36,857 nt of DNA from a virus (IMGVR_UViG_2690316068_000008:1-36857); one strand, 5' to 3'. Shown: positions 1 to 36,570, numbered from the stretch's first letter. Translations and numbers: made by a program. Notes: a model not told the origin generated them from the letters alone.

Positions 1-1053
1 TTACGGGGTAATGCCAACCGCTGCCGCCACTTTGTCGCCACTTGGCAGCGTTGCCAGAGGGTTGAAACGGAGCGCCGTTTCCAGATGATCCGGTGCCAGA
101 TGTGCGTAACGCATAGTCATTTTTATATCGTGGTGTCCGAGAATTTTTTGTAAGGCTAGAATGTTTCCACCCGACATCATGAAGTGCGCCGCAAACGTAT
201 GGCGCAGAACGTGTGTGAGTTGACCGCGAGGGAGCACGATAGACGTTTTTTCCATCACGGATAAAAATTGAAAATAGCAGTCTGTAAAGAAATTGAACCC
301 ATCAAGCGCCATGATCTCTTCGTAAAGCTCTTTACTTATAGGGATGCTTCTGTTTTTCTTCCCCTTCGTTCTGACAAAGGTAATTCGGTATTTGGTCACC
401 TGTGAGCGGGTAAGATTTACGGCTTCACGCCAGCGTGCGCCTGTGCTTAAGCATATCTTAACTACCAGTGCCAGAATTGGGTCCTGACGTTTGCAATCAG
501 CCAGCAATTCAACAATCTGCTCATGGGTAAGCCATGCCATCTCTTTTTCTGCGATGGTGAATTTTCGCATGTTCTCCAGTGGGTTCGGATACGACCATTC
601 GCCCAGACGGGATAGTTCGCTAAAAACACTACTTAGATAGCTTTGCTCCAGGTTAATGGTGACCGGGCTTGCTCCTTTCTTCCATTTCTCGCTGAAGTAG
701 ATCTCGCCTGTCAGGCGTTTATCTCGATAGTGGGCAAACATTTTAGAGGTGAGATCGGTTGCAAGAGGATTGCCCAGAGCGTCAACCATCAACAGCAATT
801 TGTCATAGACATGCTGCCCAGCTGTCAGAGATTTACCATGTAGTTTGAACCATAGCTCAACCACGTCTTTCAGTGTTCGACGATCCACTGATTCACCCAG
901 CCAGGGCTTTGCTTCGGTTTCTTCCATCGTGTGGCGCTCAAAAGCCAGAGCTTCGCCTTTGGTGGCGAATTGTTTACGCACCCGACGCCCACTACGTCCG
1001 GCGGGGTAACATTCGCAAAGCCATTTTCCTGTGGTGAGTTTTCGTACTGCCAT
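1..1053 (-). CDS. int: Tyrosine integrase (P2-family site-specific recombinase)
   Basis: 350-aa ORF with ATG at 1053 and stop at the window edge. C-terminal region HVLRHTFAAHFMMSGGNILALQKILGHHDIKMTMRYAHL fits the tyrosine-recombinase R..H..R..Y catalytic pattern. Position at the prophage end. Confidence 0.9.
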   Translation of the reverse strand: MAVRKLTTGKWLCECYPAGRSGRRVRKQFATKGEALAFERHTMEETEAKPWLGESVDRRTLKDVVELWFKLHGKSLTAGQHVYDKLLLMVDALGNPLATDLTSKMFAHYRDKRLTGEIYFSEKWKKGASPVTINLEQSYLSSVFSELSRLGEWSYPNPLENMRKFTIAEKEMAWLTHEQIVELLADCKRQDPILALVVKICLSTGARWREAVNLTRSQVTKYRITFVRTKGKKNRSIPISKELYEEIMALDGFNFFTDCYFQFLSVMEKTSIVLPRGQLTHVLRHTFAAHFMMSGGNILALQKILGHHDIKMTMRYAHLAPDHLETALRFNPLATLPSGDKVAAAVGITP

Positions 1054-1139: not shown

Positions 1140-2657
1140 TTAATCAAATGATGTGGCCAGTTCAATTAATTCAATGTAATTATGTAAGGCATAAAAAGAT
1201 GTATTCAGTCCATTCTCTATAAGGGCTCCTTGCAAATACTTTATAGCTGTATCACCATCAATAGGGCCTTGTTGAGATTTAATCATTAGTGAATTTTGCC
1301 CATTGTTTTTTATACTTGATTTAAGTATGTTTATATTATTGATAAAATACAATGCAACATCTAAGTAATTTATTAATGTTAAATTTATTTTGGGCTCGAT
1401 CTGTGAGATGAATAATCTACTGCTCGCCGTTGTATAGATATAATTGACACCTATTCTTTGCTGATTTGTATCAAGATTTAATTCAAGGATGGCTTGAGAA
1501 ACACCTTTTAAATTGGAGCTTTGCTTTATCGAATCAGTGAAACGTTGTGCTGCATTTCTTCGACCAATTAGTCCATCTATAATTTGACGATCCTTATCAT
1601 ATATAATCATTAGCGAAATTATAAAAATATAATCTACTTTCTTTTTGACTAAATCAGATTTAAGAATGTCTATTAACCTTTCAGTATTTCGGATTGAGTC
1701 TCTTAGATTTAACCCAAATGCTTCAAATACGTTGGAAATATTTATTGAAAAGTCTTCTAATGTTGCGGTTAGTGGGTATGTTTTTGATGTGATATTTTCA
1801 AACTCGGTACCAATATAATCACCAACAACACCATTAATTAAATCTTTAAGTTCAGGTTGTTTTAAAGTAAATCTTCTATGAAAAAAACGGCCTAAATAGT
1901 CATTTGCGGAAAAATCATTACCGTAAACATTCTTGATTGAATGTTGTAATTGATCTGTGTCAGTAGCAATAATAAAGACAAAATTTTTAATGTCGAATAT
2001 ATGTTTAACAATCTCTAAAAGAGAAATTGCATAATCTGGCCTGCATCTGTCTAATTCATCTATAAAGATAAATATAGGACATGAAAAACTATTTTCATAT
2101 GCCAACCTAGACCATAACGTAAGTTCTTTTTTTAATACCTTAATGCTCTTCAGTTTTTCCTGGTGTTCCTTCAGCATTATTAATGAGGCTTCTTTGGCTA
2201 TATCACCTACGTTATCTACTCCTGCATAAGTCTTGATTAGGCCAGATATGATTTCAGGTAGAACACCTTTTGTAAAGCGTCCGATAGCATGGCCGCTTTG
2301 TATCAATCGAGCATCAAGTTTTCCTGCATATGTTTGCAATTGTTGTGACAAAGAAGAAAAAAGGGTTAAAAATGCATCATCAGAAAAGTCTTGCTTCCAG
2401 GCATCAATGTAAACGCATGGGTGTGCATCTTTTATTGAGTTATAAAATCTCTTTATGAAAAAACTTTTACCAGCTCCCCATTCTGCATTAAGGTTGATTA
2501 CCGTGTTGTTCTTTTGCCCCTTTTCCTTAAGATAAAAATATAGATATTCTGCATAGTGTCTCCGATTAAGTTTGTCTTTGGAAAGAATTTCCTCTTCGTC
2601 GTCTAATATAAAGGTAGTTTCTTCATCCCAGTTCCAATTACAATCACCACATTTCAC
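1140..2657 (-). CDS. KAP-family P-loop NTPase (cargo/moron, putative defence-associated)
   Basis: 505-aa ORF with Walker A-like AEWGAGKS and Walker B-like IFIFIDELDRCRPDY, typical of KAP NTPases. Apparent GTG start at 2657 with GGAGA upstream. AT-rich compared with the phage backbone. Confidence 0.65.
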   Translation of the reverse strand: MKCGDCNWNWDEETTFILDDEEEILSKDKLNRRHYAEYLYFYLKEKGQKNNTVINLNAEWGAGKSFFIKRFYNSIKDAHPCVYIDAWKQDFSDDAFLTLFSSLSQQLQTYAGKLDARLIQSGHAIGRFTKGVLPEIISGLIKTYAGVDNVGDIAKEASLIMLKEHQEKLKSIKVLKKELTLWSRLAYENSFSCPIFIFIDELDRCRPDYAISLLEIVKHIFDIKNFVFIIATDTDQLQHSIKNVYGNDFSANDYLGRFFHRRFTLKQPELKDLINGVVGDYIGTEFENITSKTYPLTATLEDFSINISNVFEAFGLNLRDSIRNTERLIDILKSDLVKKKVDYIFIISLMIIYDKDRQIIDGLIGRRNAAQRFTDSIKQSSNLKGVSQAILELNLDTNQQRIGVNYIYTTASSRLFISQIEPKINLTLINYLDVALYFINNINILKSSIKNNGQNSLMIKSQQGPIDGDTAIKYLQGALIENGLNTSFYALHNYIELIELATSFD

Positions 2658-2682: not shown

Positions 2683-3606
2683 TTAATGTAAACAACTTAT
2701 AATAACTTTTGCAATAAACTCAATGTCTGTAAGCGAACATTCAAAAGAGTGATTTTTGGATGAAATATAAACTCGTCCTTTAGGTAGTCGAGTTATCATT
2801 CTAAATGAATTCTCTCCATCAATATTTACTAGCCACTTACCATCATGTACATCTTTAAAACCCATTTCACATATTAATTCAGAGTCTTCGGTAGATACTA
2901 CGAATGCATTTTTTAAATTGGAAGGTAGAAAACATGGGTCAAATAAATATGAGCCATCATTTATTAACTTGCCATTGATTAATACTTTTTTCACTAATGT
3001 TAAAGTATCTTTATTTTTTGCGTTTTTCATTTCTCCTGTACCAAATGAAATCCATTCAATAGAATGGCCCGTTTCTATTGCACACTGCAAAACCCAGTCT
3101 GCAGGAAAAATGTCACGCATGTATCGTGTGGCTAATGTGCTTTTTGAAATACCTAGGTGATCAGCTAATGCTTGGCGCGTTTTGTAACCGTAAGCCTCGA
3201 CAATTCGTTCTATTGTTGCCTTACCCCCTCGGTTAAAATTCATGAGTTTTTCATTATCGAACTTTATAGTGGGAATGTATACTTCATTGCAAAGGCCATT
3301 AACGGCATGTTTTTCAGAATATTGCTCTGATGAAGGAGCAGTATCTGAACCAAGAACTAACCATTCAATTGATGCTCCTGTTTCTATGGAACATATAACA
3401 ACCCAATCTGCAGGAAAGGTATTACGTGCATATCTGTTGGCCATAGTACTTTGGGAAATACCTAGATGATTACATAATGCCTGTCGTGACTTGAAGCCAT
3501 AGGCTAGGAGTATACGCTCAATAACTTTTTGCCCTCCACGATTCTGCATAACTATTGCTTTCAGATCGTTTTTGATATGGCTAAATTTTAATTTTTGAGT
3601 TGACAT
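2683..3606 (-). CDS. CI-repressor paralog with two tandem N-terminal HTH domains and a CI-like C-terminal domain
   Basis: 307-aa ORF. Residues about 25-85 and 128-188 are near-duplicates (ERILLAYGFKSRQALCNHLGISQSTMANRY...ETGASIEWL versus ERIVEAYGYKTRQALADHLGISKSTLATRY...ETGHSIEWI). The C-terminal domain is paralogous to the C-terminus of the adjacent 191-aa repressor. Confidence 0.6.
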   Translation of the reverse strand: MSTQKLKFSHIKNDLKAIVMQNRGGQKVIERILLAYGFKSRQALCNHLGISQSTMANRYARNTFPADWVVICSIETGASIEWLVLGSDTAPSSEQYSEKHAVNGLCNEVYIPTIKFDNEKLMNFNRGGKATIERIVEAYGYKTRQALADHLGISKSTLATRYMRDIFPADWVLQCAIETGHSIEWISFGTGEMKNAKNKDTLTLVKKVLINGKLINDGSYLFDPCFLPSNLKNAFVVSTEDSELICEMGFKDVHDGKWLVNIDGENSFRMITRLPKGRVYISSKNHSFECSLTDIEFIAKVIISCLH

Positions 3607-3656: not shown

Positions 3657-4232
3657 TTACTCAAAGTACTTAACTGTTATGGTTATAATTTTTCCAATAA
3701 TTTCGATTTCTTCTTTTTTACATTCGAAAGCCCTATTTCCACCTTCAACTAAGATTCTTCCACCAGGTAAACGAGTGATATCGCGGATTGTTACTTCGGC
3801 ATCAATACTTATTACCCATTTACCGTCACGAATATCGTTAAACTCTTTATCGCAAATAAAAACGGAATTGTTATCGGTGATTACAAACGGATTTTTGAGC
3901 GTAGATGGTAGAAATTCTTTATCGAAAATATAAAAACCATCTTCCTGCAAGGTTCCATCAGATAATACATATTTAACGACTTCCATAGTATTTGTATTAC
4001 CTGAAGTTTGCTTTGAACCATGTCCGGTCGTGAGCCAGTTAAGCGAGGCGCCCGTTTCAAGTGCGCACTGGATTACCCATTCAGCAGGGAATGAGTCACG
4101 CATATAGCGTGTGGCGAGAGTACTTTTAGAGATTCCTAAGTGATCGCACAACGCCTGTCGAGTCTTGAAGCCATATGCTTCTACCATGCGCTCTATAGCG
4201 CCTCGTCCGCCTTTCTCCAAATTCATGGTCAC
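3657..4232 (-). CDS. cI: Immunity repressor, 186 CI-type (HTH N-domain plus oligomerisation C-domain)
   Basis: 191-aa ORF adjacent to the divergent early operon. N-terminal ERMVEAYGFKTRQALCDHLGISKSTLATRYMRD HTH-like segment. Length close to the 186 CI as I recall it. Start may be GTG at 4232 or ATG at 4226. Confidence 0.6.
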   Translation of the reverse strand: MTMNLEKGGRGAIERMVEAYGFKTRQALCDHLGISKSTLATRYMRDSFPAEWVIQCALETGASLNWLTTGHGSKQTSGNTNTMEVVKYVLSDGTLQEDGFYIFDKEFLPSTLKNPFVITDNNSVFICDKEFNDIRDGKWVISIDAEVTIRDITRLPGGRILVEGGNRAFECKKEEIEIIGKIITITVKYFE

Positions 4233-6406: not shown

Positions 6407-7260
6407 GCACCATCCTGAAATGGGCGGGAAATAAAACCGCCATTATGTCCGAACTGAAAAAACACCTTCCTGCTGGCCCGCGACTGGTTGAACCTTTCGC
6501 GGGTTCCTGTGCTGTGATGATGGCGACGGATTACCCCAGCTATCTGGTTGCTGATATTAATCCTGATTTAATCAACCTCTATAAAAAGATTGCCGCTGAT
6601 TGCGAAGTGTTTATATCTCGTGCCAGAGCTTTATTTGAGGAAGCAAACAGGGAGGTGGCTTATTACAACATAAGGCAGGAGTTTAACTGCTCAACTGAAA
6701 TTACTGACTTCATGAAAGCAGTATATTTCCTGTATCTCAATCGTCACGGTTACCGTGGGTTATGTCGCTATAACAAGAGCGGGCATTTCAACATTCCCTA
6801 CGGTAATTATAAAAATCCGTATTTCCCTGAAAAAGAAATTCGCGCATTTGCAGAGAAAGCCCAGCGAGCAACGTTTATCTGCGCCAGCTTTGATGAAACG
6901 CTGGCGATGCTGCAGGTGGGGGATGTGGTGTATTGCGATCCGCCTTATGACGGTACGTTTTCCGGTTATCACACTGACGGCTTCACTGAAGATGACCAGT
7001 ATCACCTGGCATCCGTTCTTGAACATCGGTCATCAGAAGGACATCCCGTCATTGTTTCTAACAGTGACACATCCCTGATCCGTTCGCTGTATCGCAAATT
7101 TACTCACCACTACATCAAGGCAAAACGCAGCATCGGTGTGGCAGCTGGTGATAGTAAATCTGCAACAGAAATCATTGCTGTTTCCGGGGCGCGCTGCTGG
7201 GTGGGATTTGATCCTTCGCGTGGCGTAGATAGTTCTGCTGTGTACGAGGTGCGTGTATGA
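6403..7260 (+). CDS. dam: DNA adenine methyltransferase (Dam-like, N6-adenine MTase)
   Basis: [12 protein letters not shown]-terminus, SAM-binding EPFAGS and catalytic DPPY ([10 protein letters not shown]) motifs. Start overlaps the upstream stop. Confidence 0.8.
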
Positions 7261-9671
7261 GTCATGACGATATGAGCAACTCTAGCGGCTTTAACGAGGC
7301 CGCTGCATCATTTTCATGGAACGGCCCGAAAAAGGCCATTAACCCTTATCTGGACCCGGCGGAATTTGCGCCGGAGTCTGCACTTTCAAACCTGATCACT
7401 CTGTATGCTGCCGATAACGAGCAGGAACAACTGCGCCGCGAGGCACTGAGTGAGCAGGTCTGGGAGCGTTATTTCTTTAATGAATCCCGTGATCCTGTCC
7501 AGCGCGAAATGGAGCAGGATAAGCTCATTAGCCGCGCAAAGCTTGCGCATGAGCAGCAGCTTTTTAACCCGGACATGGTCATTCTGGCAGATGTCAGCGC
7601 CCAGCCTACCCACATCAGCAAACCGCTGATGCAACGTATCGAATACTTCAGCAGCCTGGGCAGGCCAAAGGCTTATTCCCGCTATTTGCGTGAGACGATT
7701 AAGCCATGTCTGGAGCGACTGGATTGTGTACGCGACAGTCAGCTATCCGCTTCTTTCCGTTTTATGGCAAGCCATCAAGGGCTTGAGGGCCTGCTGATCC
7801 TGCCTGAAATGAGTCAGGATCAGGTAAAACGCCTGTCCACCCTGGTAGCTGCGCATATGAGCATGTGCCTTGATGCCGCTTGTGGCGATTTATATGCCAC
7901 CGATGACGTTAAGCCAGAAGAAATCCGCAAGACATGGGAAAAGGTGGCAGCGGAAACCCTGCGACTGGATGTTATCCCGCCTGCGTTTGAGCAACTCCGC
8001 CGGAAAAGAAACCGCCGCAAACCCGTGCCCTATGAACTCATACCGGGTTCGCTGGCACGTATGCTTTGCGCCGACTGGTGGTATCGAAAATTGTGGAAGA
8101 TGCGTTGCGAATGGCGGGAAGAGCAGTTGCGTGCTGTCTGCCTGGTCAGCAAAAAAGCATCTCCCTATGTCAGCTATGAAGCCGTGACGCATAAACGTGA
8201 GCAGCGCCGTAAGTCGCTGGAGTTTTTCCGTTCTCATGAACTGGTGAACGAAGACGGCGACACGCTGGATATGGAAGATGTGGTAAACGCCAGCAGCAGC
8301 AACCCGGCACATCGCCGCAATGAGATGATGGCCTGTGTTAAAGGTCTGGAGCTTATCGCAGAAATGCGTGGTGACTGCGCCGTTTTCTACACTATCACCT
8401 GTCCGTCACGTTTCCATTCCACGCTCAACAACGGCAGACCCAACCCGACCTGGACAAATGCGACGGTAAGACAAAGCAGCGATTATCTGGTCGGCATGTT
8501 TGCTGCATTTCGTAAGGCTATGCACAAAGCCGGGTTGCGCTGGTATGGCGTGCGGGTGGCTGAGCCGCACCATGACGGTACTGTGCACTGGCATCTCATG
8601 TGTTTCATGCGCAAAAAAGACCGCCGCGCCATTACTGCATTGTTGCGTAAGTTTGCCATCCGTGAAGACCGCGAGGAACTGGGTAATAACACTGGTCCAC
8701 GCTTTAAATCTGAGCTGATAAACCCACGCAAAGGAACACCGACAAGCTACATCGCGAAATACATCAGTAAGAACATTGACGGGCGTGGTCTGGCTGGCGA
8801 GATCAGCAAGGAAACGGGTAAATCCCTGCGTGATAATGCTGAATACGTTAATGCCTGGGCGTCTCTGCATCGTGTTCAGCAATTCCGCTTCTTTGGCATT
8901 CCGGGGCGTCAGGCTTACCGTGAACTGCGATTGCTGGCTGGTCAGGCGGCAAGGCAACAGGGGGACAAAAAAGCAGGTGCGCCGGTACTGGATAACCCGC
9001 GCCTTGATGCCATCCTGGCTGCTGCTGATGCAGGTTGTTTTGCCACCTACATCATGAAGCAGGGCGGCGTACTGGTTCCCCGCAAATATCACCTTATCAG
9101 AACAGCTTATGAAATTAACGAAGAGCCGACTGCTTATGGCGATCACGGTATTCGTATTTATGGCATCTGGTCACCCATTGTACAGGGCAAGATTTGCACT
9201 CATGCAGTGAAGTGGAAAATGGTTCGTAAGGCCGTTGACGTTCAGGAGGCGGCAGCCGACCAGGGCGCTTGCGCCCCTTGGACTCGTGGCAATAACTGTC
9301 CCCTTGCTGAAAATTTGTACCAACAAGGGAAAGACAAATCAGCTGATGGGGGCTCCAGAACGGACATTACCCGCATGGATGACAAGGAATTGCACGATTA
9401 CCTGCACAGTATGAGCAAAAAAGATCGCCGGGAGCTGGCAGCAAGGTTGCGCCTGGTGAAACCGAAACGGCGTAAAGACTACAAACAGCGAATTACAGAT
9501 CATCAGCATCAGCAGCTCGTCTATGAACTGAAGTCCAGAGGATTTGATGGCAGCGAGAAAGAAGTCGATTTGCTCCTTCGCGGTGGCAGTATTCCGTCAG
9601 GAGCAGGCTTGCGTATCTTCTATCGGAACCAGCGTTTGCGGGAAGATGATAAGTGGCGGAACCTGTATTAA
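7257..9671 (+). CDS. A: Replication initiation endonuclease gpA (rolling-circle initiator)
   Basis: 804-aa ORF, ATGA overlap with dam. Size and position match P2 gene A. Contains a histidine-rich [12 protein letters not shown] segment consistent with a rolling-circle initiator metal-binding motif. Confidence 0.8.
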
Positions 9672-9825: not shown

Positions 9826-10014
9826 ATGCAGGACTATTTTTTGGAGTCTTTGAAGCTCCAGCGCATTGATTTTTTTCTTAAGCTTGTAGCGGCTAGTGAG
9901 TGTAGTGATGAAGAGAAGGGGCTAGCTTTGCAGTGGGTTTCTGAACTAACAGATGAACTCATGGCAAAAATCAGAACCCACGAATACAACCGCTCAATGG
10001 ATGTCATCAGTTGA
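9826..10014 (+). CDS. Small hypothetical protein downstream of LexA box (possible Tum-like antirepressor component)
   Basis: 62-aa ORF with AGGAGG RBS 5 nt upstream of the ATG. Function inferred only from context. Confidence 0.35.
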   Translation: MQDYFLESLKLQRIDFFLKLVAASECSDEEKGLALQWVSELTDELMAKIRTHEYNRSMDVIS

Positions 10015-10024
10015 GGTGACTTTT

Positions 10025-10258
10025 ATGCGCATTGAAATAATGATCGATAAAGAGCAGAAGATTAGCCAGTCTATCCTGGACGCCCTTGAATCCGAGCTTT
10101 ACCGCAATCTGCGCCCCCTGTATCCCAAAACGGTAATTCGTATCCGCAAAGGTAGCTCTAACGGTGTGGAACTGACCGGACTGCAACTGGACGAAGAAAG
10201 AAAACAAGTGATGAAAATTATGCAGAAAGTGTGGGAAGACGACAGCTGGCTGCATTAA
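10025..10258 (+). CDS. DinI-like protein
   Basis: 78 aa from ATG 10025 (RBS GAGGTG): MRIEIMIDKEQKISQSILDALESELYRNLRPLYP...VWEDDSWL. Resembles E. coli DinI in length, MRIE start and acidic/Trp C-terminus. Confidence 0.65.
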   Translation: MRIEIMIDKEQKISQSILDALESELYRNLRPLYPKTVIRIRKGSSNGVELTGLQLDEERKQVMKIMQKVWEDDSWLH

Positions 10259-10632
10259 GAAACGTTGCTGGCGTCTGAACTTGCTTCTGGCGCCAGCAAG
10301 GTTGAACAACGAGCCGTGCGAGGCGTTAGCTCTGTGGTGCATGTCTATGCCGCATGAGATCGCATGATCGTTTGAGGATCGTTTTTGCTAAGGCCCGCCA
10401 GAACTGTCGGGCTTTTGCGTAGATCATGCAGGTGCATGAAAACCACTACATAAAGCGGGCAGGCGTGGCGGGGATACGAGCGCGCGCTAAGTCATATAAG
10501 AGTTATATATTGATTTGATTGCTGGACATGCATACAGTATCGCTCTATCATCTAATAAATCTTAGAGTATTTGACAATGTTTGGATAAAATAGAACCTAA
10601 CTTATTCATAATCCGCTAAACAGGGATGTCAG

Positions 10633-11547
10633 ATGCCATACCAATTGGTAGAGCTTAGCCCCGTAGCTAACGATCTTGAACAGTTAGGAACCAAAGAGAA
10701 GTTTTGGTTCTATTTCTCCGATGACACTGTAAATTTGCAGTTGTTTAAGTACTCTAGGCCAGGTACTGGCGAGCATTGGTCTGAAAAGTGTGCTGCTGAG
10801 TTATGTCATTTGCTTAACATTCCACATGCTAGCTATGATTTGGCGCGATACAATGGTCGATTCGGTGTGGTGACTCAGAATATCATTCCATCTGGTTTCC
10901 GGATGGTAATGGGAAATGAAGTGCTTCACAGTTCGACATTCGATTATCCTGGGCCTTTACAAGCCGGGGAAAAGCCGGTAAGGGTCAGAGAACACACTGT
11001 CACAAGGGTATTGGGTTGTTTAGATAGGGAATCTATCAAGCCTCCTCCGAGTGTATATGATCTAACCGGGCTAAATGCAGCAGATGTATTTTGTGGATAT
11101 TTGATGCTCGATGCACTTGTGAGTAATCAAGATCGCCATCATGAAAATTGGGCGATCATGCTTAACAATGAAACTGGTGAGCAGTTTTTGTGTCCAACAT
11201 ACGATCATGCCGCTAGTTTAGGAAGGGAGATGTTAGATGATGAGCGTAACGAACGGCTTAATACTAAAGATAAAAATCGACAAATCCCATGTTTTGTAAG
11301 AAAAGCTCGCTCTGAGCTATTCAAAGCAAAAACTGATAAAAAGCCCTTGCTGACCGTTGAAGCATTTCAACATGCAGTTGAAGGGAGAGTTGCCGCTCGC
11401 GACCATTGGTTAGGTAAGTTGAGCGTTTTAACAGAAGATTCCATTACAGATGTGTTTAACCAAGTGCCTTCATCGTGTATATCCGACAGTGCACGTAGAT
11501 TTGCAACGTTAATGGTAATGGAAAATCGCAGAAGGTTACTAGAATGA
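10633..11547 (+). CDS. HipA-like Ser/Thr kinase (short, kinase domain only; cargo gene 1)
   Basis: 304 aa. Motifs LGTKEKF, SNQDRHHENW and LCPTYDHA line up with HipA ATP-binding, catalytic-loop and Mg-binding motifs as I recall them. AT-rich; RBS AGGGA upstream. Confidence 0.6.
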   Translation: MPYQLVELSPVANDLEQLGTKEKFWFYFSDDTVNLQLFKYSRPGTGEHWSEKCAAELCHLLNIPHASYDLARYNGRFGVVTQNIIPSGFRMVMGNEVLHSSTFDYPGPLQAGEKPVRVREHTVTRVLGCLDRESIKPPPSVYDLTGLNAADVFCGYLMLDALVSNQDRHHENWAIMLNNETGEQFLCPTYDHAASLGREMLDDERNERLNTKDKNRQIPCFVRKARSELFKAKTDKKPLLTVEAFQHAVEGRVAARDHWLGKLSVLTEDSITDVFNQVPSSCISDSARRFATLMVMENRRRLLE

Positions 11548-12284
11548 CTAATACAAACTCCGTTTACGTCGCATGGCAGGCACCAGATACCAGAGACTGG
11601 CATGTTGTTGGTAACTTGCAAGAGCGCAAATCGGGGTATGTTTTCAGGTATACCAAAGGTGCTCTTAAATCTACTAAATTTACAAAGTTTAGCGGCATGA
11701 GTGATGTTCGTGAAACTTATGTTTCGGAAGAATTGTTTCCTCTTTTTAAAAATCGCCTTTTATCACCGAGACGTCCAGAGTATCCGAGTTTCATTAAATG
11801 GCTTGGATTTGAAGAAGATAAGGTAAATCCTATCGATATTCTTGCTCGCTCGGGAGGCTTACGAAGCACTGATCAGCTGCAGATTTTCAAAAAAATTGAT
11901 GTTGATTCTGATGGTAACTTTGAGCATTTTTTCTTCTTACATGGACTTGGTTACTTAAATAGCTTAGCTAATGCTCGTGTATCTGAATTGAAACCGGGGC
12001 AAATTTTGCGTCTTTGCTTGGATCTTCAAAATGAATACGATGGGGATGCTGTTGTCGTTCGTGCAGATAAACCAGCTGAAATCGTTGGTTACTGCCCTAG
12101 GTATTTAAGTAATGATATCAAGAAGATGTTATTGGATGATCCAAAATCAATCACTTTAACGGTCGAAAAGATTAGCGATGATGCTCCTCATAACTATCGG
12201 TTATTATGTAAATTATCAGGAGTACTAAGCCAAGCCTGTCAATCGACGCTGATTCCTCAGGATGAGTTTGAACCTATTGAGTAA
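11544..12284 (+). CDS. HipA N-terminal-subdomain-like (HipS-like) protein fused to a HIRAN-like C-terminal domain (cargo gene 2)
   Basis: 246 aa, ATGA overlap with gene 1. N-terminal segments VVGNLQERKSGYVFRY, LFPLFKNRLLSP and NPIDILARSGGLRS resemble the HipA N-subdomain. C-terminal NEYDGDAVVVRADKPAEIVGYCPRYLS resembles the HIRAN core. Confidence 0.5.
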   Translation: MTNTNSVYVAWQAPDTRDWHVVGNLQERKSGYVFRYTKGALKSTKFTKFSGMSDVRETYVSEELFPLFKNRLLSPRRPEYPSFIKWLGFEEDKVNPIDILARSGGLRSTDQLQIFKKIDVDSDGNFEHFFFLHGLGYLNSLANARVSELKPGQILRLCLDLQNEYDGDAVVVRADKPAEIVGYCPRYLSNDIKKMLLDDPKSITLTVEKISDDAPHNYRLLCKLSGVLSQACQSTLIPQDEFEPIE

Positions 12285-12288
12285 ATGA

Positions 12289-12316
12289 AGAAAAGCCACC
12301 AAACGGTGGCTTTTCT
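12289..12316. terminator. Bidirectional rho-independent terminator between convergent cargo operon and Q
   Basis: AAAAGCCACC-aaac-GGTGGCTTTT: 8-bp GC-rich stem, 4-nt loop, A-run upstream and T-run downstream. Confidence 0.55.
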
Positions 12317-12318
12317 TA

Positions 12319-13359
12319 TTATGGGACTATATCTAGCGAGTAGGTATTAAACTGTATCGCCTCCTTGCCAAGCCAATCATTCATCTCCTGTAATCGCTTT
12401 TGTAGTGGCATTAGCTCATTTCGGACGAATACACGGCTTGCCTTCTCCACATCCCCAAACCCCCCAACATTATTCGGCATAATCCCCATCATTTGCGGCG
12501 GCACACGATGCGCCGCCATCATGTCGTCCCGGCTTACGTTCTTGATGTTCAGAAACTCATCCTTTGCCGCCACTTCTGACAGCGGGATGATCTGAAGCCC
12601 GTCTTTTTTGCCGTTAGGCGAGTACATAAACAGGTTGCGGAAGTTGCCCGGACCTTTGGCGCTTTTCATCGCGTTGCGGAGGTTGTTCACATCCTCCTGG
12701 TTCTGAGCGGCATCGGTCATGTACATTATGAATCCTGCATGGCTGCCATTAATATAATATTTGCGTCGGAACAGCGTGGCGGACTCGTTGAGCAGGGCTG
12801 ACGGAATGGCAGAAAGATAGCCGGGCAGGCCGTAGATCTCCTGGTTGATATCGGGTTCCATCAGATGAAAGATGCTGCCTTTCGTGAACTGATACGGCTG
12901 GGTTGTCATACCGTATTGCACAAACCAGTAGGTATCCAGGTCTAACCCGCGTCGGGTGTATTTTGCCAGAGCAGGCTCAAGGGCGATAATTTCACCGAAC
13001 CGGTTCGTGCGTTTCTCCAGGTAGGCGTTACCAAATACCAGATAGTCCTGCACAAAACGTGAAAAAGCCTGCTGGCTGAGCAGCGGGTGAGGGATGTAGG
13101 TGCTGGTCAGAATGTTGCATTTCACCGCAATCGGTGAGCTATGATGCACGGCGGCGCGGAAGGTTCGCGCCAGTCCGTCGAAACTCACTGGTGGCTCATA
13201 CCAGCGGTCCATCTGTACGCATTCCACATAGTCCAGTAATTCGCGGCGGTCCAGAACAGGAACGGGATCGCCGAAGCTGAATGCTTCGGCTGAAGTCTGG
13301 CTTTTATGCTGGATCTGATTCATCGCCGCTGCGCGGTTTTTCTTACGCTTTCCCATCAA
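12319..13359 (-). CDS. Q: Portal protein gpQ
   Basis: 346-aa ORF, size and position as for P2 Q, convergent with the cargo operon and overlapping the P stop. Confidence 0.85.
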   Translation of the reverse strand: MMGKRKKNRAAAMNQIQHKSQTSAEAFSFGDPVPVLDRRELLDYVECVQMDRWYEPPVSFDGLARTFRAAVHHSSPIAVKCNILTSTYIPHPLLSQQAFSRFVQDYLVFGNAYLEKRTNRFGEIIALEPALAKYTRRGLDLDTYWFVQYGMTTQPYQFTKGSIFHLMEPDINQEIYGLPGYLSAIPSALLNESATLFRRKYYINGSHAGFIMYMTDAAQNQEDVNNLRNAMKSAKGPGNFRNLFMYSPNGKKDGLQIIPLSEVAAKDEFLNIKNVSRDDMMAAHRVPPQMMGIMPNNVGGFGDVEKASRVFVRNELMPLQKRLQEMNDWLGKEAIQFNTYSLDIVP

Positions 13360-20257: not shown

Positions 20258-20702
20258 ACTGCAGAAGGTGGACGACTGGCTGAGTGTCTTGCTGACGAAT
20301 CTGGAGCCAGCCGCAAGAAGCCGCATGATGCGTCAGCTGGCGCAGGAACTGCGCCGGACACAGCAGCAGAATATCAGGATGCAGCACAACCCTGACGGTA
20401 GCAGCTATGAACCGAGACGGGTAACAGCACGCAGCAAAAAGGGTCGCATCAAACGTCAGATGTTTACAAAGCTGCGCACCACCAAATACCTGAAAACTGC
20501 CGCCAGCGCCGATTCTGCCAGCGTGCAGTTTGAAGGTAAGGTGCAGCGCATTGCCCGCGTTCACCATTACGGCCTGCGTGATCGTGTAAGCCGTAATGGT
20601 CCGGAAGTGCGGTATGCAGAGCGGCGATTATTAGGTTTCAATAACGATATAATGTTGAAGTTAATTGATCTGTTAACTCGGCATTTAATTAATCCAAACT
20701 AA
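20250..20702 (+). CDS. S: Tail completion protein gpS
   Basis: 150 aa, apparent GTG start overlapping the R stop. Size matches P2 S. Confidence 0.7.
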   Translation: MAELQKVDDWLSVLLTNLEPAARSRMMRQLAQELRRTQQQNIRMQHNPDGSSYEPRRVTARSKKGRIKRQMFTKLRTTKYLKTAASADSASVQFEGKVQRIARVHHYGLRDRVSRNGPEVRYAERRLLGFNNDIMLKLIDLLTRHLINPN

Positions 20703-21894
20703 GTTTATATTTCTCAATGTGATTATTGATGTGATTAAAGAACATTCTTGGATTCCAACCTTTTGTGAGTTCAGAAATTAAATACTCATCAACCATGTCG
20801 AGTGCATAGTCTAAGGTCGGCTGTAAAAGTAGCCCCCCAATTGATCCAACTACTGGAGCTAAAGGAGATGTAATATTCGATGCCGCTAAGGCTCCAGTTA
20901 ACATCATGGCAATGCTCTTAGTCGAACGGCCTAAAAAGGAATCAAAAAATCCTTTTGAGTTTGATATGCTATCAATGTAATATTTTGAGATGTCACTCGC
21001 TGAACTGCTTTGTTCTGCTTCTTTTAACCATTTTCTGAATTTTTTAGCATGACGATCATTTCTGAGCCTCATGATGTCATTCATTGGTAATCCCATTTCA
21101 ATAAATGATTTACGTAAGTCAGGGAAGTTTTCAATGAGTGAAATTTGTTTGAATATCTCATTCTTATCAATTGTAATTAATGCTTGGCTGATAATTGCAC
21201 TCACATTGTCTGTTATGTGGGGGCGAGCTTTTTTATTAACGAGATATTTAAAGTTGAACAGTTCTTCTGCAACTTTTCCTAACTTTTTTTTATCGGTAAG
21301 ACTCAAATCTGTTAATTTCTCTTTAGTTAAATCGATTCCCAACTGGTTAAGTTTACCACTATTCAAAGCTGATATTGTCATGTCAACACAGTCTTTTTCT
21401 AAACCTTTGGGAATGTCTAAGTAGTTATCTCTCAGTTTTTTAATAAGATTTCTTTTTTCACCAGGTTTAAGACCTTTTCTTAATACGCTGAGCCCAGTTG
21501 AGATCGACTCCTCAGGGTCCGTATGTACGGTACTATTAAATCTCATGCTAACTAATGGAAGAGTTCCAGGTATCGGAGATGAAATGTATCCAACATTGGC
21601 AGTCCATAATGAAAAACTAAGAGCCTCTTGGTCAATTAATCTCTCAACATCATATAGGCCTATCTCATTAACCAGAAAAGCAAGTGGAACGTTTTCTCCA
21701 TATACTTTGAAGTTTAATTTTTCATTTAAAATAAAACCCTCAAATAGCTTTGATCTAATATTTTGAAGTTTTTTAGGTTGATCTATTATGTCTTGCTTCG
21801 TGAGCTGTGTTTCGCCAATCATAATATATTTTCGGCAGTAATCGTTTAGTTCTGTATCAAATAAAGCATTCGATATATCTATTTTTTTTGACAT
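20689..21894 (-). CDS. Hypothetical 401-aa cargo (moron) protein with C-terminal hydrophobic segment
   Basis: Long AT-rich ORF on the opposite strand between S and V, ATG at 21894. C-terminal stretch SIAMMLTGALAASNITSPLAPVVGSIGGLLLQ is hydrophobic. No recognisable catalytic motif. Confidence 0.5.
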   Translation of the reverse strand: MSKKIDISNALFDTELNDYCRKYIMIGETQLTKQDIIDQPKKLQNIRSKLFEGFILNEKLNFKVYGENVPLAFLVNEIGLYDVERLIDQEALSFSLWTANVGYISSPIPGTLPLVSMRFNSTVHTDPEESISTGLSVLRKGLKPGEKRNLIKKLRDNYLDIPKGLEKDCVDMTISALNSGKLNQLGIDLTKEKLTDLSLTDKKKLGKVAEELFNFKYLVNKKARPHITDNVSAIISQALITIDKNEIFKQISLIENFPDLRKSFIEMGLPMNDIMRLRNDRHAKKFRKWLKEAEQSSSASDISKYYIDSISNSKGFFDSFLGRSTKSIAMMLTGALAASNITSPLAPVVGSIGGLLLQPTLDYALDMVDEYLISELTKGWNPRMFFNHINNHIEKYKLSLD

Positions 21895-22069
21895 CTTATG
21901 ATCCTGTTATCCTTGTGAGGACACCCTAGAGTAATAGTGAATTTATAAATACACAGCGGCATAAATTAGATCTTTTAAGATTTTTTTTCAATCTATAAAT
22001 ATATATAAGTGAAAAGTGATTTTTTGACTGTGAGGGCGGCAAAAGGTGTGGGACGACTTTAAAAGTCAT

Positions 22070-22087
22070 TGTGCTATTGATTACACA
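22070..22087. promoter_or_regulatory. Ogr/Delta-type late-promoter activator site (TGT-N12-ACA) upstream of V
   Basis: TGTgctattgattacACA about 50 bp upstream of the V start. Confidence 0.4.
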
Positions 22088-22133
22088 AGCTTGCGACCTA
22101 TCCAGGTGACTCCTGGAAAGACATTCTATAGGC

Positions 22134-22712
22134 ATGAACGCACAACTAACAGAAATCATGCGCCTTATCACCAACCTAATCCGCACTGGTGTAGTCACCG
22201 ACGTGGACCGGGAGAACTGGCTTTGTCGGGTGAAAACGGGCGAGCTTGAAACTAACTGGATCAGCTGGCTGACGCTGCGTGCAGGGAATGCCAGGACATG
22301 GTGGCGACCATCGGAAGGTGAGCAGGTGGTGGTGCTGAGCATGGGCGGCAATCTGGAAACCGCGTTTGCGCTGCCCGCCATCTATTCGAATCAGTTCGCG
22401 CCACCGTCGACGTCGGCGGACGCCTGCGTGACAGAACATCCTGACGGTGGCTGGTTTGAATACGAACCCGCCACCGGGCGCTGGTATGTCAGAGGCATCA
22501 AATCAATGGTCATTGAGGCCGCTGACAACATCACCATGAAAACCAGTGAGTTTGTACTGGAGGCTGACCGCACGCGCATTAACAGCGAAGTGGTGATCAA
22601 TGGTGGCATTACCCAGGGCGGCGGAGCGATGAGTTCTAACGGGATCGTGGTTGATGCGCATCAGCATACTGGCGTCCTGAAAGGCGGCGATACCACCGGA
22701 GGCCCGGTATGA
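22134..22712 (+). CDS. V: Baseplate spike/assembly protein gpV
   Basis: 192 aa, first gene of the V-W-J-I-H-G operon. Size and position as for P2 V. Confidence 0.8.
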   Translation: MNAQLTEIMRLITNLIRTGVVTDVDRENWLCRVKTGELETNWISWLTLRAGNARTWWRPSEGEQVVVLSMGGNLETAFALPAIYSNQFAPPSTSADACVTEHPDGGWFEYEPATGRWYVRGIKSMVIEAADNITMKTSEFVLEADRTRINSEVVINGGITQGGGAMSSNGIVVDAHQHTGVLKGGDTTGGPV

Positions 22713-34237: not shown

Positions 34238-35923
34238 TTATCCTAATCCTGGCCATACCATGACGATGATTGTCCCTGCCAGCGTCAGCAGGACGTTGGC
34301 GATTGCATAGGTGCCCGCATAGCCCAGCGCCGGGATGTTACTGCGAGCTGTATCACTGATGATCTCCATTGCCGGCGCGCAGGTGCGTGCGCCCATCATT
34401 GCGCCGAACAACAGTGCGCGGTTCATTCGCAATACATAAGCACCGAACAAGAAACAGATAACCACTGGCACAAGACTGACAATCAATCCGGCAATCAACA
34501 TCTGACCGCCAATCGCGCCCAGGCCGTTATTAATACCGCTACCGGCGCTCAGACCAACGCCTGCCATAAACACCATTAAGCCGAACTCTTTCACCATGCT
34601 TAATGCACCCTGCGGAATGTAACCGAAGGTCGGGTGGTTAGCGCGCATAAAGCCCAGCATAATTCCGGCGAATAACAACCCGGCAGCGTTCCCCATGCCG
34701 AAACTGAATGTGCTGAACTGGAAGGTGATCATCCCGATCATCAGCCCAATAACAAAGAAGGCGCAGAATGCCAGCAAGTCAGTGACCTGGCTGTGAATCG
34801 AGATAAAGCCGATGCGATCGGCGATGGTTTTTACGCGACGGGCATCGCCGCTGACTTGTAAAACGTCACCTTTGTTAAGCACGACGTTGTCATCTATCGG
34901 CATCTCAATCTGGCTACGAATGACGCGGTTAAGGAAGCAACCGTGATCGGTCAACTTCAGTTGTGCGAGACGTTTGCCCACGGCGTTATGGTTTTTAACG
35001 ACCACTTCTTCAGTGACGATACGCATGTCGAGAAGGTCACGATCGAAAACTTCTTTGCCGTTACGGAAGCTGGGATCGAGTCGTGCGTGGGCGTCGGGAT
35101 AGCCTACCAACGCTATTTCATCTCCCATTTGTAGCACAGCATCACCGTCTGGATTCGCCAGAATCCCGTTACGTCGAATACGTTCAATGTAGCAGCCAGT
35201 TTGTCGATAAATACCCAGTTCACGCAGATTTTTGCCGTCGGTCCAGGCCACCAGCTCCGGGCCGACGCGGTAGGCGCGGATCACCGGTAAATAAACCTTA
35301 CGGTTGGCATCAGTGTCCAGGCCACGTTCGCGGGCGATTTGCTGGGCGCTGGTCTGTAAGTCCTGATGCTGCAATTTCGGCAAGTAACGCGCACCAACAA
35401 TCAAACTCACCAGACCGATTAAATAGGTTAAGGCATACCCGAGGCTCAGATTATCCAGTGCCAGTGAGAGCTGCCTGCTTTCCATGCCGGAATGACGCAG
35501 TGTATCGCCAGCACCGACCAGAACCGGTGTCGACGTCATAGAGCCAGCTAACATACCGGCCGTCAGGCCAATATCCCAGCCAAACAGCTTACCTAACCCT
35601 AAGGCGATCACCAGCGCACTGCCAACCATCACCAGTGCTAACATTAGGTAATTTTTCCCATCGCGAAAAAAAATGGAAAAAAAGTTCGGTCCGGCTTCGA
35701 CCCCGACGCAGAAAATAAACAGCATAAAGCCAAGATTAAGCGCGTCGGTGTTAATGCTGAAATGTTGTTGGCCTAATAACAGCGATACGACTAAAACGCC
35801 AATGGAATTACCCAGTTGGATCGAACCAAGTCGTAATTTCCCGAGACATAGCCCAAGCGCGAGGACCACAAATAATAACAGAATGTAATTCCCATTTAAC
35901 AATTCGGCGACGTTTATATTCAC
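34238..35923 (-). CDS. ybjL: Putative transport protein YbjL (AAE-family membrane transporter with central TrkA-C/RCK-like region)
   Basis: 561-aa polytopic membrane protein whose N-terminus [39 protein letters not shown] matches E. coli YbjL as recalled. Confidence 0.8.
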
Positions 35924-36192
35924 GGAGGCTAACTTCTTGTTTACTAGTAAGCTGTTGAAAGAAATGGTAATTTACGATAATGTTTTTTACCAGAATTCAG
36001 GGCGCAGATTCATTCAGCGCACCTAAACGATAGTAAAGTAACAATATATTTTACTAGTGTAATCACATTAGGTATCAACGGCTATATGAATTGCGTTGGC
36101 CTATATTAGCATGGAATGCGAAGCGGCTTTATCTTACTGAACGCCACACTGGCGAAAAATGTGTTCGATAGACGCAGTGTCAGGAGGAACGA

Positions 36193-36570
36193 GTGAAACA
36201 TAAACAACGTTGGGCGGGGGCAATCTGCTGTTTTGTCCTCTTCATTGTGGTGTGTCTTTTTCTGGCGACGCACATGAAAGGCGCTTTTCGGGCTGCCGGG
36301 CATCCTGAAATCGGTTTGCTATTTTTCATTCTTCCTGGTGCAGTTGCCAGCTTCTTTTCACATCGTAGAGAAGTCCTGAAACCTCTGTTTGGCGCAATGC
36401 TGGCGGCACCCTGTTCGATGCTCATTATGCGGCTGTTTTTTTCACCGACGCGCTCATTCTGGCAAGAGCTGGCATGGTTATTAAGTGCGGTGTTCTGGTG
36501 TGCGCTGGGGGCATTGTGTTTCTTATTTATCAGTAGTTTGTTTAAACCACAGCACAGAAAAAATCAATAA
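36193..36570 (+). CDS. ybjM: Inner membrane protein YbjM
   Basis: 125-aa hydrophobic protein between ybjL and grxA, the conserved E. coli neighbourhood. Confidence 0.7.
   Translation: MKHKQRWAGAICCFVLFIVVCLFLATHMKGAFRAAGHPEIGLLFFILPGAVASFFSHRREVLKPLFGAMLAAPCSMLIMRLFFSPTRSFWQELAWLLSAVFWCALGALCFLFISSLFKPQHRKNQ

Follow-up and report, generated by a model that had tools for sequence, protein, structure and literature searches.

The stretch of DNA IMGVR_UViG_2690316068_000008:1-36857 (36,857 nucleotides (nt); the whole stretch is called the window below) carries a P2-like prophage, in which two adjacent genes occupy the slot between the replication gene A and the packaging genes. We refer to their open reading frames as ORF1 and ORF2. 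ORF1 is predicted to encode a short kinase of the HipA family, and ORF2 a protein that combines a HipS-like with a HIRAN domain. The pair is a hipIN-type module, equal to PDC-M03 of PADLOC and to what Rousset et al. (2022) call the "HIRAN-kinase", and a P2-like (Peduoviridae) prophage carries it as hotspot cargo. The elements of the locus are listed here, with lengths in amino acids (aa) and G+C contents as fractions (GC):

10633..11547, + strand: hipI-type gene for a short HipA-family Ser/Thr kinase without N-subdomain-1, 304 aa (PADLOC, fold, motifs)
11544..12284, + strand: hipN-type gene, HipS-like plus HIRAN, 246 aa (Pfam, PADLOC, Foldseek)
10496..10632, + strand: cassette leader and putative promoter region (GC 0.31; bounded by the loss of P2-like backbone homology)
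12289..12316, both strands: bidirectional hairpin resembling an intrinsic terminator, 13-bp stem, common to the cassette and the convergent portal gene
10380..10495, + strand: conserved phage backbone, context and not cargo (93-99% identity in phages and prophages without the cassette)

Layout and composition of the cassette

The ATG of ORF2 overlaps the TGA of ORF1 as ATGA at 11544-11547, with the stop codon at 11545-11547 dividing the two reading frames. The composition of the cassette is foreign relative to the phage backbone. GC is 0.405 across the cassette (10496-12316), 0.427 in ORF1 and 0.393 in ORF2, versus 0.528 in gene A and 0.522 in the portal gene, and GC at third codon positions is 0.37 (ORF1) and 0.32 (ORF2) versus 0.56 (A) and 0.63 (portal). 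The hairpin facing the portal gene folds with -21.6 and -20.4 kcal/mol on the two strands (z -7.1 and -7.6), and none of 200 shuffled sequences folded as well; a simple terminator scan overlooked this element, and folding recovered it. The co-directional, overlapping genes, their AT-richness against the flanking phage genes and the strong bidirectional hairpin had all been pointed out in an initial annotation of this DNA, and each of these descriptions is borne out.

The initial annotation had also placed a long AT-rich intergenic region at 10260..10632. This description applies only to 10496-10632, whereas 10260-10495 (GC 0.55) is backbone that is 93-99% identical in P2-like phages without the cassette. 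Homology to other P2-like phage backbones ends at about 10487-10498. A further hairpin obtained by folding (about 10392-10416, 3' of a DinI-like gene) lies within the conserved part. The putative promoter function of the leader would fit the only sigma-70-like site found by a promoter scan, TGGACA-17-TATCAT at 10523-10551, and a Shine-Dalgarno-like AGGGA precedes the ATG of ORF1. We found no convincing operator-like inverted repeat within the leader (10496-10632).

ORF1 matched the PADLOC model PDC-M03A (PDLC04344) with an E-value of 2.1e-122, its residues 2-304 aligning with positions 4-300 of the 305 in the profile. It belongs to phrog_8728; the PHROG families of both ORFs are labelled as function unknown, and a search of NCBIfam returned no model matching either ORF1 or ORF2. 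Against the Pfam family HipA_C (PF07804), ORF1 alone reached 20.7 bits (E 3.6e-4), below the gathering cut-off of 30.5 bits, whereas all 35 aligned members of the ORF1 family matched HipA_C individually (E <= 0.1; best 3.9e-9). When the 35-sequence profile was compared with the sequences in the PDB, the only match below E 0.01 was the Helicobacter pylori kinase CtkA (E 0.0014). Since sequences and profiles reached only weakly into the PDB, structure prediction was required.

The AlphaFold2 model of ORF1 (predicted local distance difference test 84, predicted template modelling score 0.86) was compared with the PDB by Foldseek. CtkA was found at 6.7e-10 (template modelling score 0.66-0.73), HipA at 1.7e-5 and HipT at 2.8e-5, each with a probability of 1.00. 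The HipT structures among the matches were 8ezr_B and 7wcf, and many HipA structures were found at about 2e-5. The initial annotation had pointed to three motifs matching the HipA kinase core. These motifs, LGTKEKF (L18-F24), SNQDRHHENW (164-173) and LCPTYDHA (186-193), are present and invariant in the 35 homologues. Down to 57% identity, the invariant residues comprise the Gly-rich loop L18-F24, K39, N165-Q-D-R-H-H-E-N-W173 and Y190-D191.

In ORF1, both the D-x-H-x-x-N catalytic loop (D167-R-H-H-E-N172) and D191, which binds Mg, are intact, and in the profile alignment with CtkA, D167 and D191 fall on the aspartates of the CtkA DRH and xFD motifs. We take the catalytic and Mg-binding residues to correspond to D309, N314 and D332 of HipA. 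Because of the fold matches, the family-wide HipA_C matches and the invariant motifs, we assign ORF1 as a short kinase with the predicted HipA/CtkA fold that looks catalytically competent.

ORF2 matched the PADLOC model PDC-M03B (PDLC04347) at 3.4e-93 (residues 1-244 on profile positions 1-241 of 245). Its residues 127-228 matched Pfam HIRAN (PF08797) above threshold (51.3 bits, 1.1e-13). The N-terminal region gave a Couple_hipA match of 16 bits, which is below threshold for the protein of the window; this match was seen in 22 of 33 homologues (best 7.3e-4). Pfam matches of ORF2 were limited to these two families. Searches of PDB sequences with the single ORF2 sequence and with its profile gave nothing significant, and Foldseek agreed with the two-domain assignment, including the HIRAN fold. 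By profile and predicted structure, ORF2 joins a HipS-like domain to HIRAN. The earlier reading of the protein, an N-terminus resembling the HipA N-subdomain followed by HIRAN, is thereby upheld. W11, W19 and W86, all within the HipS-like part (about residues 1-120), are invariant. Two residues of the HIRAN part, D166 (in QNEYD) and Y218, are invariant within the family and presumably equivalent to D94 and F142 of HLTF; the correspondence is not a test of DNA binding.

Spread of the module and cargo of the hotspot

In broad searches, 955 clusters matched ORF1 and 535 matched ORF2. At E <= 1e-30, the ORF2 profile matched at least 310 cluster representatives (library clustered to 50% identity); nearly all of its best 150 matches have 240-270 aa and align along their whole length. 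We examined the gene order in 56 IMG/VR loci, defined as viral loci that encode a relative of ORF1 (numbered with the prefix L). The kinase gene came before the HipN gene, adjacent and on the same strand, in all 55 informative loci, and the two genes typically overlapped by 4-20 nt. Together they make up a conserved operon in which the stop codon of one gene overlaps the start codon of the next. One locus (L069, 5941-6928) has the kinase in two ORFs (profile positions 2-78 and 78-305) next to an intact HipN-type gene; decay or a frameshift of the toxin gene might account for this, as might an error in sequencing.

The pair is retained at 57-71% kinase identity across unrelated contexts. One copy, with a kinase of 71% identity, belongs to an E. 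coli island that also has Phage_AlpA, DUF3987 and primase genes; others are in a chromosomal islet of V. cholerae and in a pseudomonad element near an integrase gene. A Vibrio PM2-like (Vinavirales) prophage of 14.6 kb (L012, PQ189286) carries it at 6935-8649, beside the integrase. The C. difficile phage phiCDKH02, a Firmicute phage with a siphophage-sized genome, has it in the lysogeny module (L013, 3947-5536), beside the integrase and downstream of XRE/ImmA-type regulator genes. The module thus recurs in temperate phages across phyla (Enterobacteria, Vibrio, Clostridioides), and homologues occur widely among environmental Vibrio, Shewanella, Microbulbifer and pseudomonads as well as in C. 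difficile phages. Of 5,426 complete E. coli genomes, 21 contain the whole cassette, the end of the match usually lying on the portal gene, and PGAP calls ORF1 a "hypothetical protein" in most genomes. A megablast search of 50,697 phage records with the cassette matched only a 116-nt backbone stub, and distant copies from phages of Vibrio and C. difficile were recovered by tblastn.

The genes upstream of the cassette in the window code for an A-like replication endonuclease of 804 aa, a small protein of phrog_698 and a DinI-like protein; downstream, on the opposite strand, lie the portal and then the terminase ATPase genes. In 35 of the 56 viral loci, a convergent portal ORF was likewise found 29-127 nt (mostly 29-39 nt) past the stop codon of the hipN-type gene. 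This adjacency extends even to P2-like phages with only about 62% identity in the portal and 31-36% in the A protein, and hipIN is always the portal-proximal cargo in L016-L052 and L068. The occurrence of the cassette in phages with portals only about 62% identical implies lateral exchange. Between the cassette and A or DinI, the spacing differs by kilobases from locus to locus, owing to other cargo located there.

The slot between gpA and gpQ, next to cos, is a documented hotspot for anti-phage cargo in P2-like phages (Rousset et al., 2022; PMC9122126), as the initial annotation had assumed for the interval between A and the packaging genes. Our survey of the slot in other P2-like phages is in line with this. 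Towards gene A, we identified SIR2-HerA (L027), DarTG (L029), PD-T4-10 (L068) and PD-Lambda-5-like genes (L050) as co-resident cargo. Sibling phages with the same backbone have a TIR-domain or Hypoth_Ymh-domain protein in the slot instead, or a SIR2 and ATPase pair in addition to hipIN.

A cos-like string, GGCGTGGCGGGGA, lies at 10462-10474 in the conserved backbone immediately left of the cassette. It may correspond to the first 13 nt of the cos of phage 186. The 19-mers of P2 and 186 cos had no match in the window at up to three mismatches, and of the 186-type string no more than these 13 nt are present. If GGCGTGGCGGGGA is cos, hipIN has cos on one side and the portal gene on the other. In strain GmM062, the additional SIR2 and ATPase pair is on the opposite side, between DinI and the cos-like segment, which would then imply two insertion points flanking that segment.

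Earlier descriptions, related systems and the rest of the prophage

The initial annotation had presented the pair as a candidate novel system of undescribed architecture. This claim is refuted. Gerdes, Baerentsen and Brodersen (2021, mBio; PMC8262856) described hipIN as a short kinase without N-subdomain-1 (HipI) encoded ahead of HipN, which consists of a HipS-like domain together with HIRAN, and counted 14 such modules among 1,239. They also proposed that HIRAN recognizes the DNA ends of invading or replicating phages, activates the kinase and causes abortive infection; the DNA-end-sensing and abortive-infection proposal of the initial annotation repeats this published hypothesis. ORF1 and ORF2 are 100% identical to WP_001146828.1 and WP_000185757.1, respectively, and both accessions (WP_001146828 and WP_000185757) appear in the table of P2 hotspot arrangements of Rousset et al. 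(2022). The same paper lists a "HIRAN-kinase" from Vibrio prophage hotspots (HipA_C plus Couple_hipA/HIRAN) among unknown systems (PMC9122126). A 2025 paper in NAR noted that HipA/HIRAN pairs adjoin diDNase genes in Gram-positive bacteria and cited the HipI assignment (PMC11706625). The pair is therefore already known as a candidate.

The window pair shows no architectural difference from hipIN. It shares the core-only kinase (304 aa, in a family of 279-321 aa), whose Gly-rich loop lies close to the N-terminus (residues 18-24), the downstream HipS-like plus HIRAN gene, the lack of HipB and the identical proposed mechanism; the 14 modules of the Gerdes set were presented without discussion of P2-like prophage hotspots. 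With PDC-M03 it shares adjacent genes and full-length matches to the A and B models. PDC systems were nominated from genes embedded inside BREX, DISARM or type I restriction-modification systems (Payne et al., 2024; 10.1101/2024.01.29.577857), whereas the window pair is prophage hotspot cargo. Rousset et al. (2022) only catalogued the proteins of the window; the "Exonuclease + HipA" system that they cloned as pFR108 is a different, HipL-like form.

We considered whether the pair belongs to better characterized kinase systems. HipBST of E. coli O127 and Legionella has the gene order hipB-hipS-hipT, whereas the cassette has the kinase gene in first position, no gene for a HipB-like helix-turn-helix (HTH) protein, and a HipS-like domain fused to HIRAN. 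Membership in HipBST is rejected on these grounds: the cassette has two genes only, kinase first, and the phrog_698 protein and DinI encoded upstream have no HTH, in agreement with the initial annotation. The HipS-like sequences of HipN and HipL also branch apart from HipS in the tree of Gerdes et al. (PMC8262856).

HipL is a single-chain fusion of kinase, HipS-like and HIRAN parts (PMC8262856). The same modules are found in the window as two genes, divided by the ORF1 stop codon, and this two-gene form in all informative viral loci led us to reject membership in HipL as well. pFR108, also from a P2 hotspot (E. coli TA255), contains a DEDD exonuclease, which the window pair lacks. In its second protein, the kinase core precedes a segment alignable with the N-terminus of ORF2, and similarity to the window proteins is confined to the catalytic loop (37% over 51 aa) plus a small part of the N-domain. 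We note that HIRAN-kinase modules recur beside small DEDD exonucleases, with a DUF5051-type enzyme and a kinase of HipL-like form in P2 hotspots of E. coli and with diDNase and HipA/HIRAN in the pairs mentioned above (PMC11706625).

DS-6 of DefensePredictor (HipA-like plus DUF3037), the same as PDC-M66, defends against phage and requires its kinase to do so; its partner neutralizes the toxicity of the kinase, and deletion of the partner is toxic (PMC12548924). DS-6 resembles the window pair as a two-gene HipA-family kinase module without HipB, and differs in an unrelated partner (DUF3037/DUF1829). Membership in DS-6/PDC-M66 is rejected, as ORF2 matches only HIRAN and Couple_hipA in Pfam and the pair matches only the PDC-M03 models in PADLOC. 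The DS-6 result indicates that HipA-family kinases can be defence effectors, and says nothing direct about a HipS-like/HIRAN partner.

HipBA of E. coli K-12 shares the kinase fold and the catalytic and Mg-binding motifs with ORF1. HipA has N-subdomain-1 in cis, and HipB, an HTH antitoxin and repressor, is encoded upstream; the window has neither, and sequence similarity is insufficient for the Pfam cut-off or for a PDB profile match. CtkA of H. pylori (JHP940) is the best structural match of ORF1, and DRHxxNW and xFD motifs are present in both. It is described as a stand-alone proinflammatory kinase with no known HipS/HIRAN partner, whereas the window kinase has such a partner.

Further features of the prophage are the following:

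1140..2657, - strand: KAP-family P-loop NTPase, 505 aa (Pfam 1.5e-45; PADLOC PDC-S20 6.7e-78)
2683..3606, - strand: CI-type repressor, 307 aa, with two Phage_CI_repr HTH stretches and a C-terminal domain (Pfam)
3657..4232, - strand: CI-type repressor of the standard form, 191 aa (Pfam)
9826..10014: hypothetical gene of 189 nt ahead of the DinI-like gene (RefSeq annotation)
about 10025..10258, + strand: DinI-like gene (RefSeq 234-nt equivalent; the mechanical ORF 9953..10258, 101 aa, is overextended)
20689..21894, - strand: ORF of 401 aa, no Pfam or PADLOC match
21926..22381, - strand: ORF of 151 aa, no Pfam or PADLOC match

The gene of the KAP NTPase, which also gave weaker PifA and QatA matches, has the integrase (1..1053) on one side and the CI-type repressor genes on the other. 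The prophage thus appears to possess a further cargo slot, occupied by another candidate defence gene (PDC-S20). The adjacent CI genes look like a duplicated or mosaic immunity region. The minus-strand pair at 20689..22381 interrupts a long run of plus-strand genes, taken as virion structural genes, and is probably a further cargo islet. The DinI-like gene is called "SOS induction modulator" in a related phage record. At the right end of the window (34238..36570), a permease gene (Asp-Al_Ex and TrkA_C domains) and a YbjM-family gene are host chromosome, indicating that the prophage ends before about 34.2 kb.

Possible function of the pair and its significance

A toxin-antitoxin or abortive-infection role of the pair is plausible. 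We consider it fairly probable that the hipIN-type module works as a DNA-end-sensing abortive-infection system in its P2-like prophage. In the lysogen, HipI and HipN would form a complex in which the HipS-like domain keeps HipI inactive. HIRAN would detect free DNA 3' ends from an infecting or replicating phage, and detection would alter or release the complex, so that the kinase could phosphorylate an essential host factor. By analogy with HipA (GltX) and HipT (TrpS), this factor might be an aminoacyl-tRNA synthetase. Growth would halt, and the infection would be aborted. Because the kinase gene precedes the partner gene that overlaps its stop, and because HipL fusions exist, we favour a stable complex with conformational gating over a labile antitoxin. 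In its most specific form, the proposal is tentative: HipI-HipN could be a stable sensor-kinase complex in which binding of a phage 3' end by HIRAN switches the kinase on conformationally, and its substrate could be other than an aminoacyl-tRNA synthetase.

Several points weigh against the abortive-infection proposal. The toxicity of ORF1, its neutralization by ORF2, DNA-end binding by HIRAN and the kinase substrate are each inferred. The HipS-like domain could complete the kinase and not inhibit it, the N-subdomain being a structural part of the kinase in HipA. P2-type replication itself generates 3'-OH ends, and the module would somehow have to avoid responding to its own prophage. Clade XI, which includes the HipI subclade, has the entry "None" under analysed modules in Table 1 of Gerdes et al. 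(PMC8262856), and PDC-M03 is among 145 phage defence candidates of PADLOC described as untested (Payne et al., 2024). We found no experimental test of any hipIN/PDC-M03 pair in the literature searched, which lay largely outside subscription journals. The related pFR108 was cloned and is absent from the three additional active systems (eight phages) of Rousset et al. (PMC9122126).

The pair could instead be an addiction module of prophages and islands, in which the kinase is a toxin, HipN its antitoxin and stabilization of the element by post-segregational killing the main function, with phage defence absent or incidental and HIRAN perhaps only tethering the complex to DNA or serving autoregulation. 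Its two-gene layout is like that of toxin-antitoxin systems, and the founders of the family are toxins of such systems (PMC8262856). Moreover, the pair is always on mobile elements, frequently beside integrases, a plasmid hipBA reportedly acts as a stabilization system, and roughly one in four P2-like hotspots houses maintenance functions, for instance partition systems (PMC9122126). We nevertheless regard addiction as unlikely. There is no HTH or HipB-like autoregulator, a toxin-first order with an overlapping partner is ill-suited to keeping an antitoxin in excess, and single-chain HipL fusions are incompatible with differential decay of an antitoxin. The co-resident cargo is mostly anti-phage, and DS-6, the sister system that has been validated, serves defence.

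HipN could also be a targeting or activating subunit. Its HipS-like domain would then complete the kinase, and HIRAN would recruit the holoenzyme to 3' ends, where it would phosphorylate DNA-bound replication or repair proteins of phage or host, a direct interference for which growth arrest is not needed. This is credible, since the same fold is an integral and non-inhibitory part of HipA; we rate it as quite unlikely. A secreted, host-modulating kinase like H. pylori CtkA, and thus virulence cargo and not an intracellular toxin, would be in keeping with CtkA as the best structural and sequence-profile match and with the virulence genes, such as cytolethal distending toxin, found in some P2-like hotspots (PMC9122126). 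It is very improbable, as the obligate HipS-like/HIRAN partner suggests intracellular regulation on DNA and the homologues extend to environmental bacteria and C. difficile phages. Finally, the missing NCBIfam model, the PGAP name and the PHROG labels could be taken as signs of an undescribed defence architecture, a notion that we practically discount in view of hipIN, PDC-M03, the table and "HIRAN-kinase" of Rousset et al. and the HipA/HIRAN mention in PMC11706625.

The pair is no new kind of system, since the literature and PADLOC already contain its architecture, the hypothesis about it and the very same proteins in the very same hotspot. hipIN/PDC-M03 is a candidate with a falsifiable mechanism, a HIRAN sensor of DNA ends that would govern a HipA-type kinase. 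The copy in the window is a convenient example, as it is native to E. coli and contained in a compact 1.8-kb cassette with a promoter-like site and a terminator hairpin. Our analysis adds the constant gene order (55/55), the portal adjacency (35/56) and the SIR2-HerA, DarTG and PD-T4-10 systems that share the slot. If defence were shown, the result would apply widely, since the family is large and recurrent in phages of Enterobacteria, Vibrio and Clostridioides, and it would illustrate how a eukaryote-type fork-sensing domain serves bacterial immunity. If the gating of the kinase by its sensor proves true, HipI would be the first bacterial immune kinase directly gated by a DNA-end sensor.

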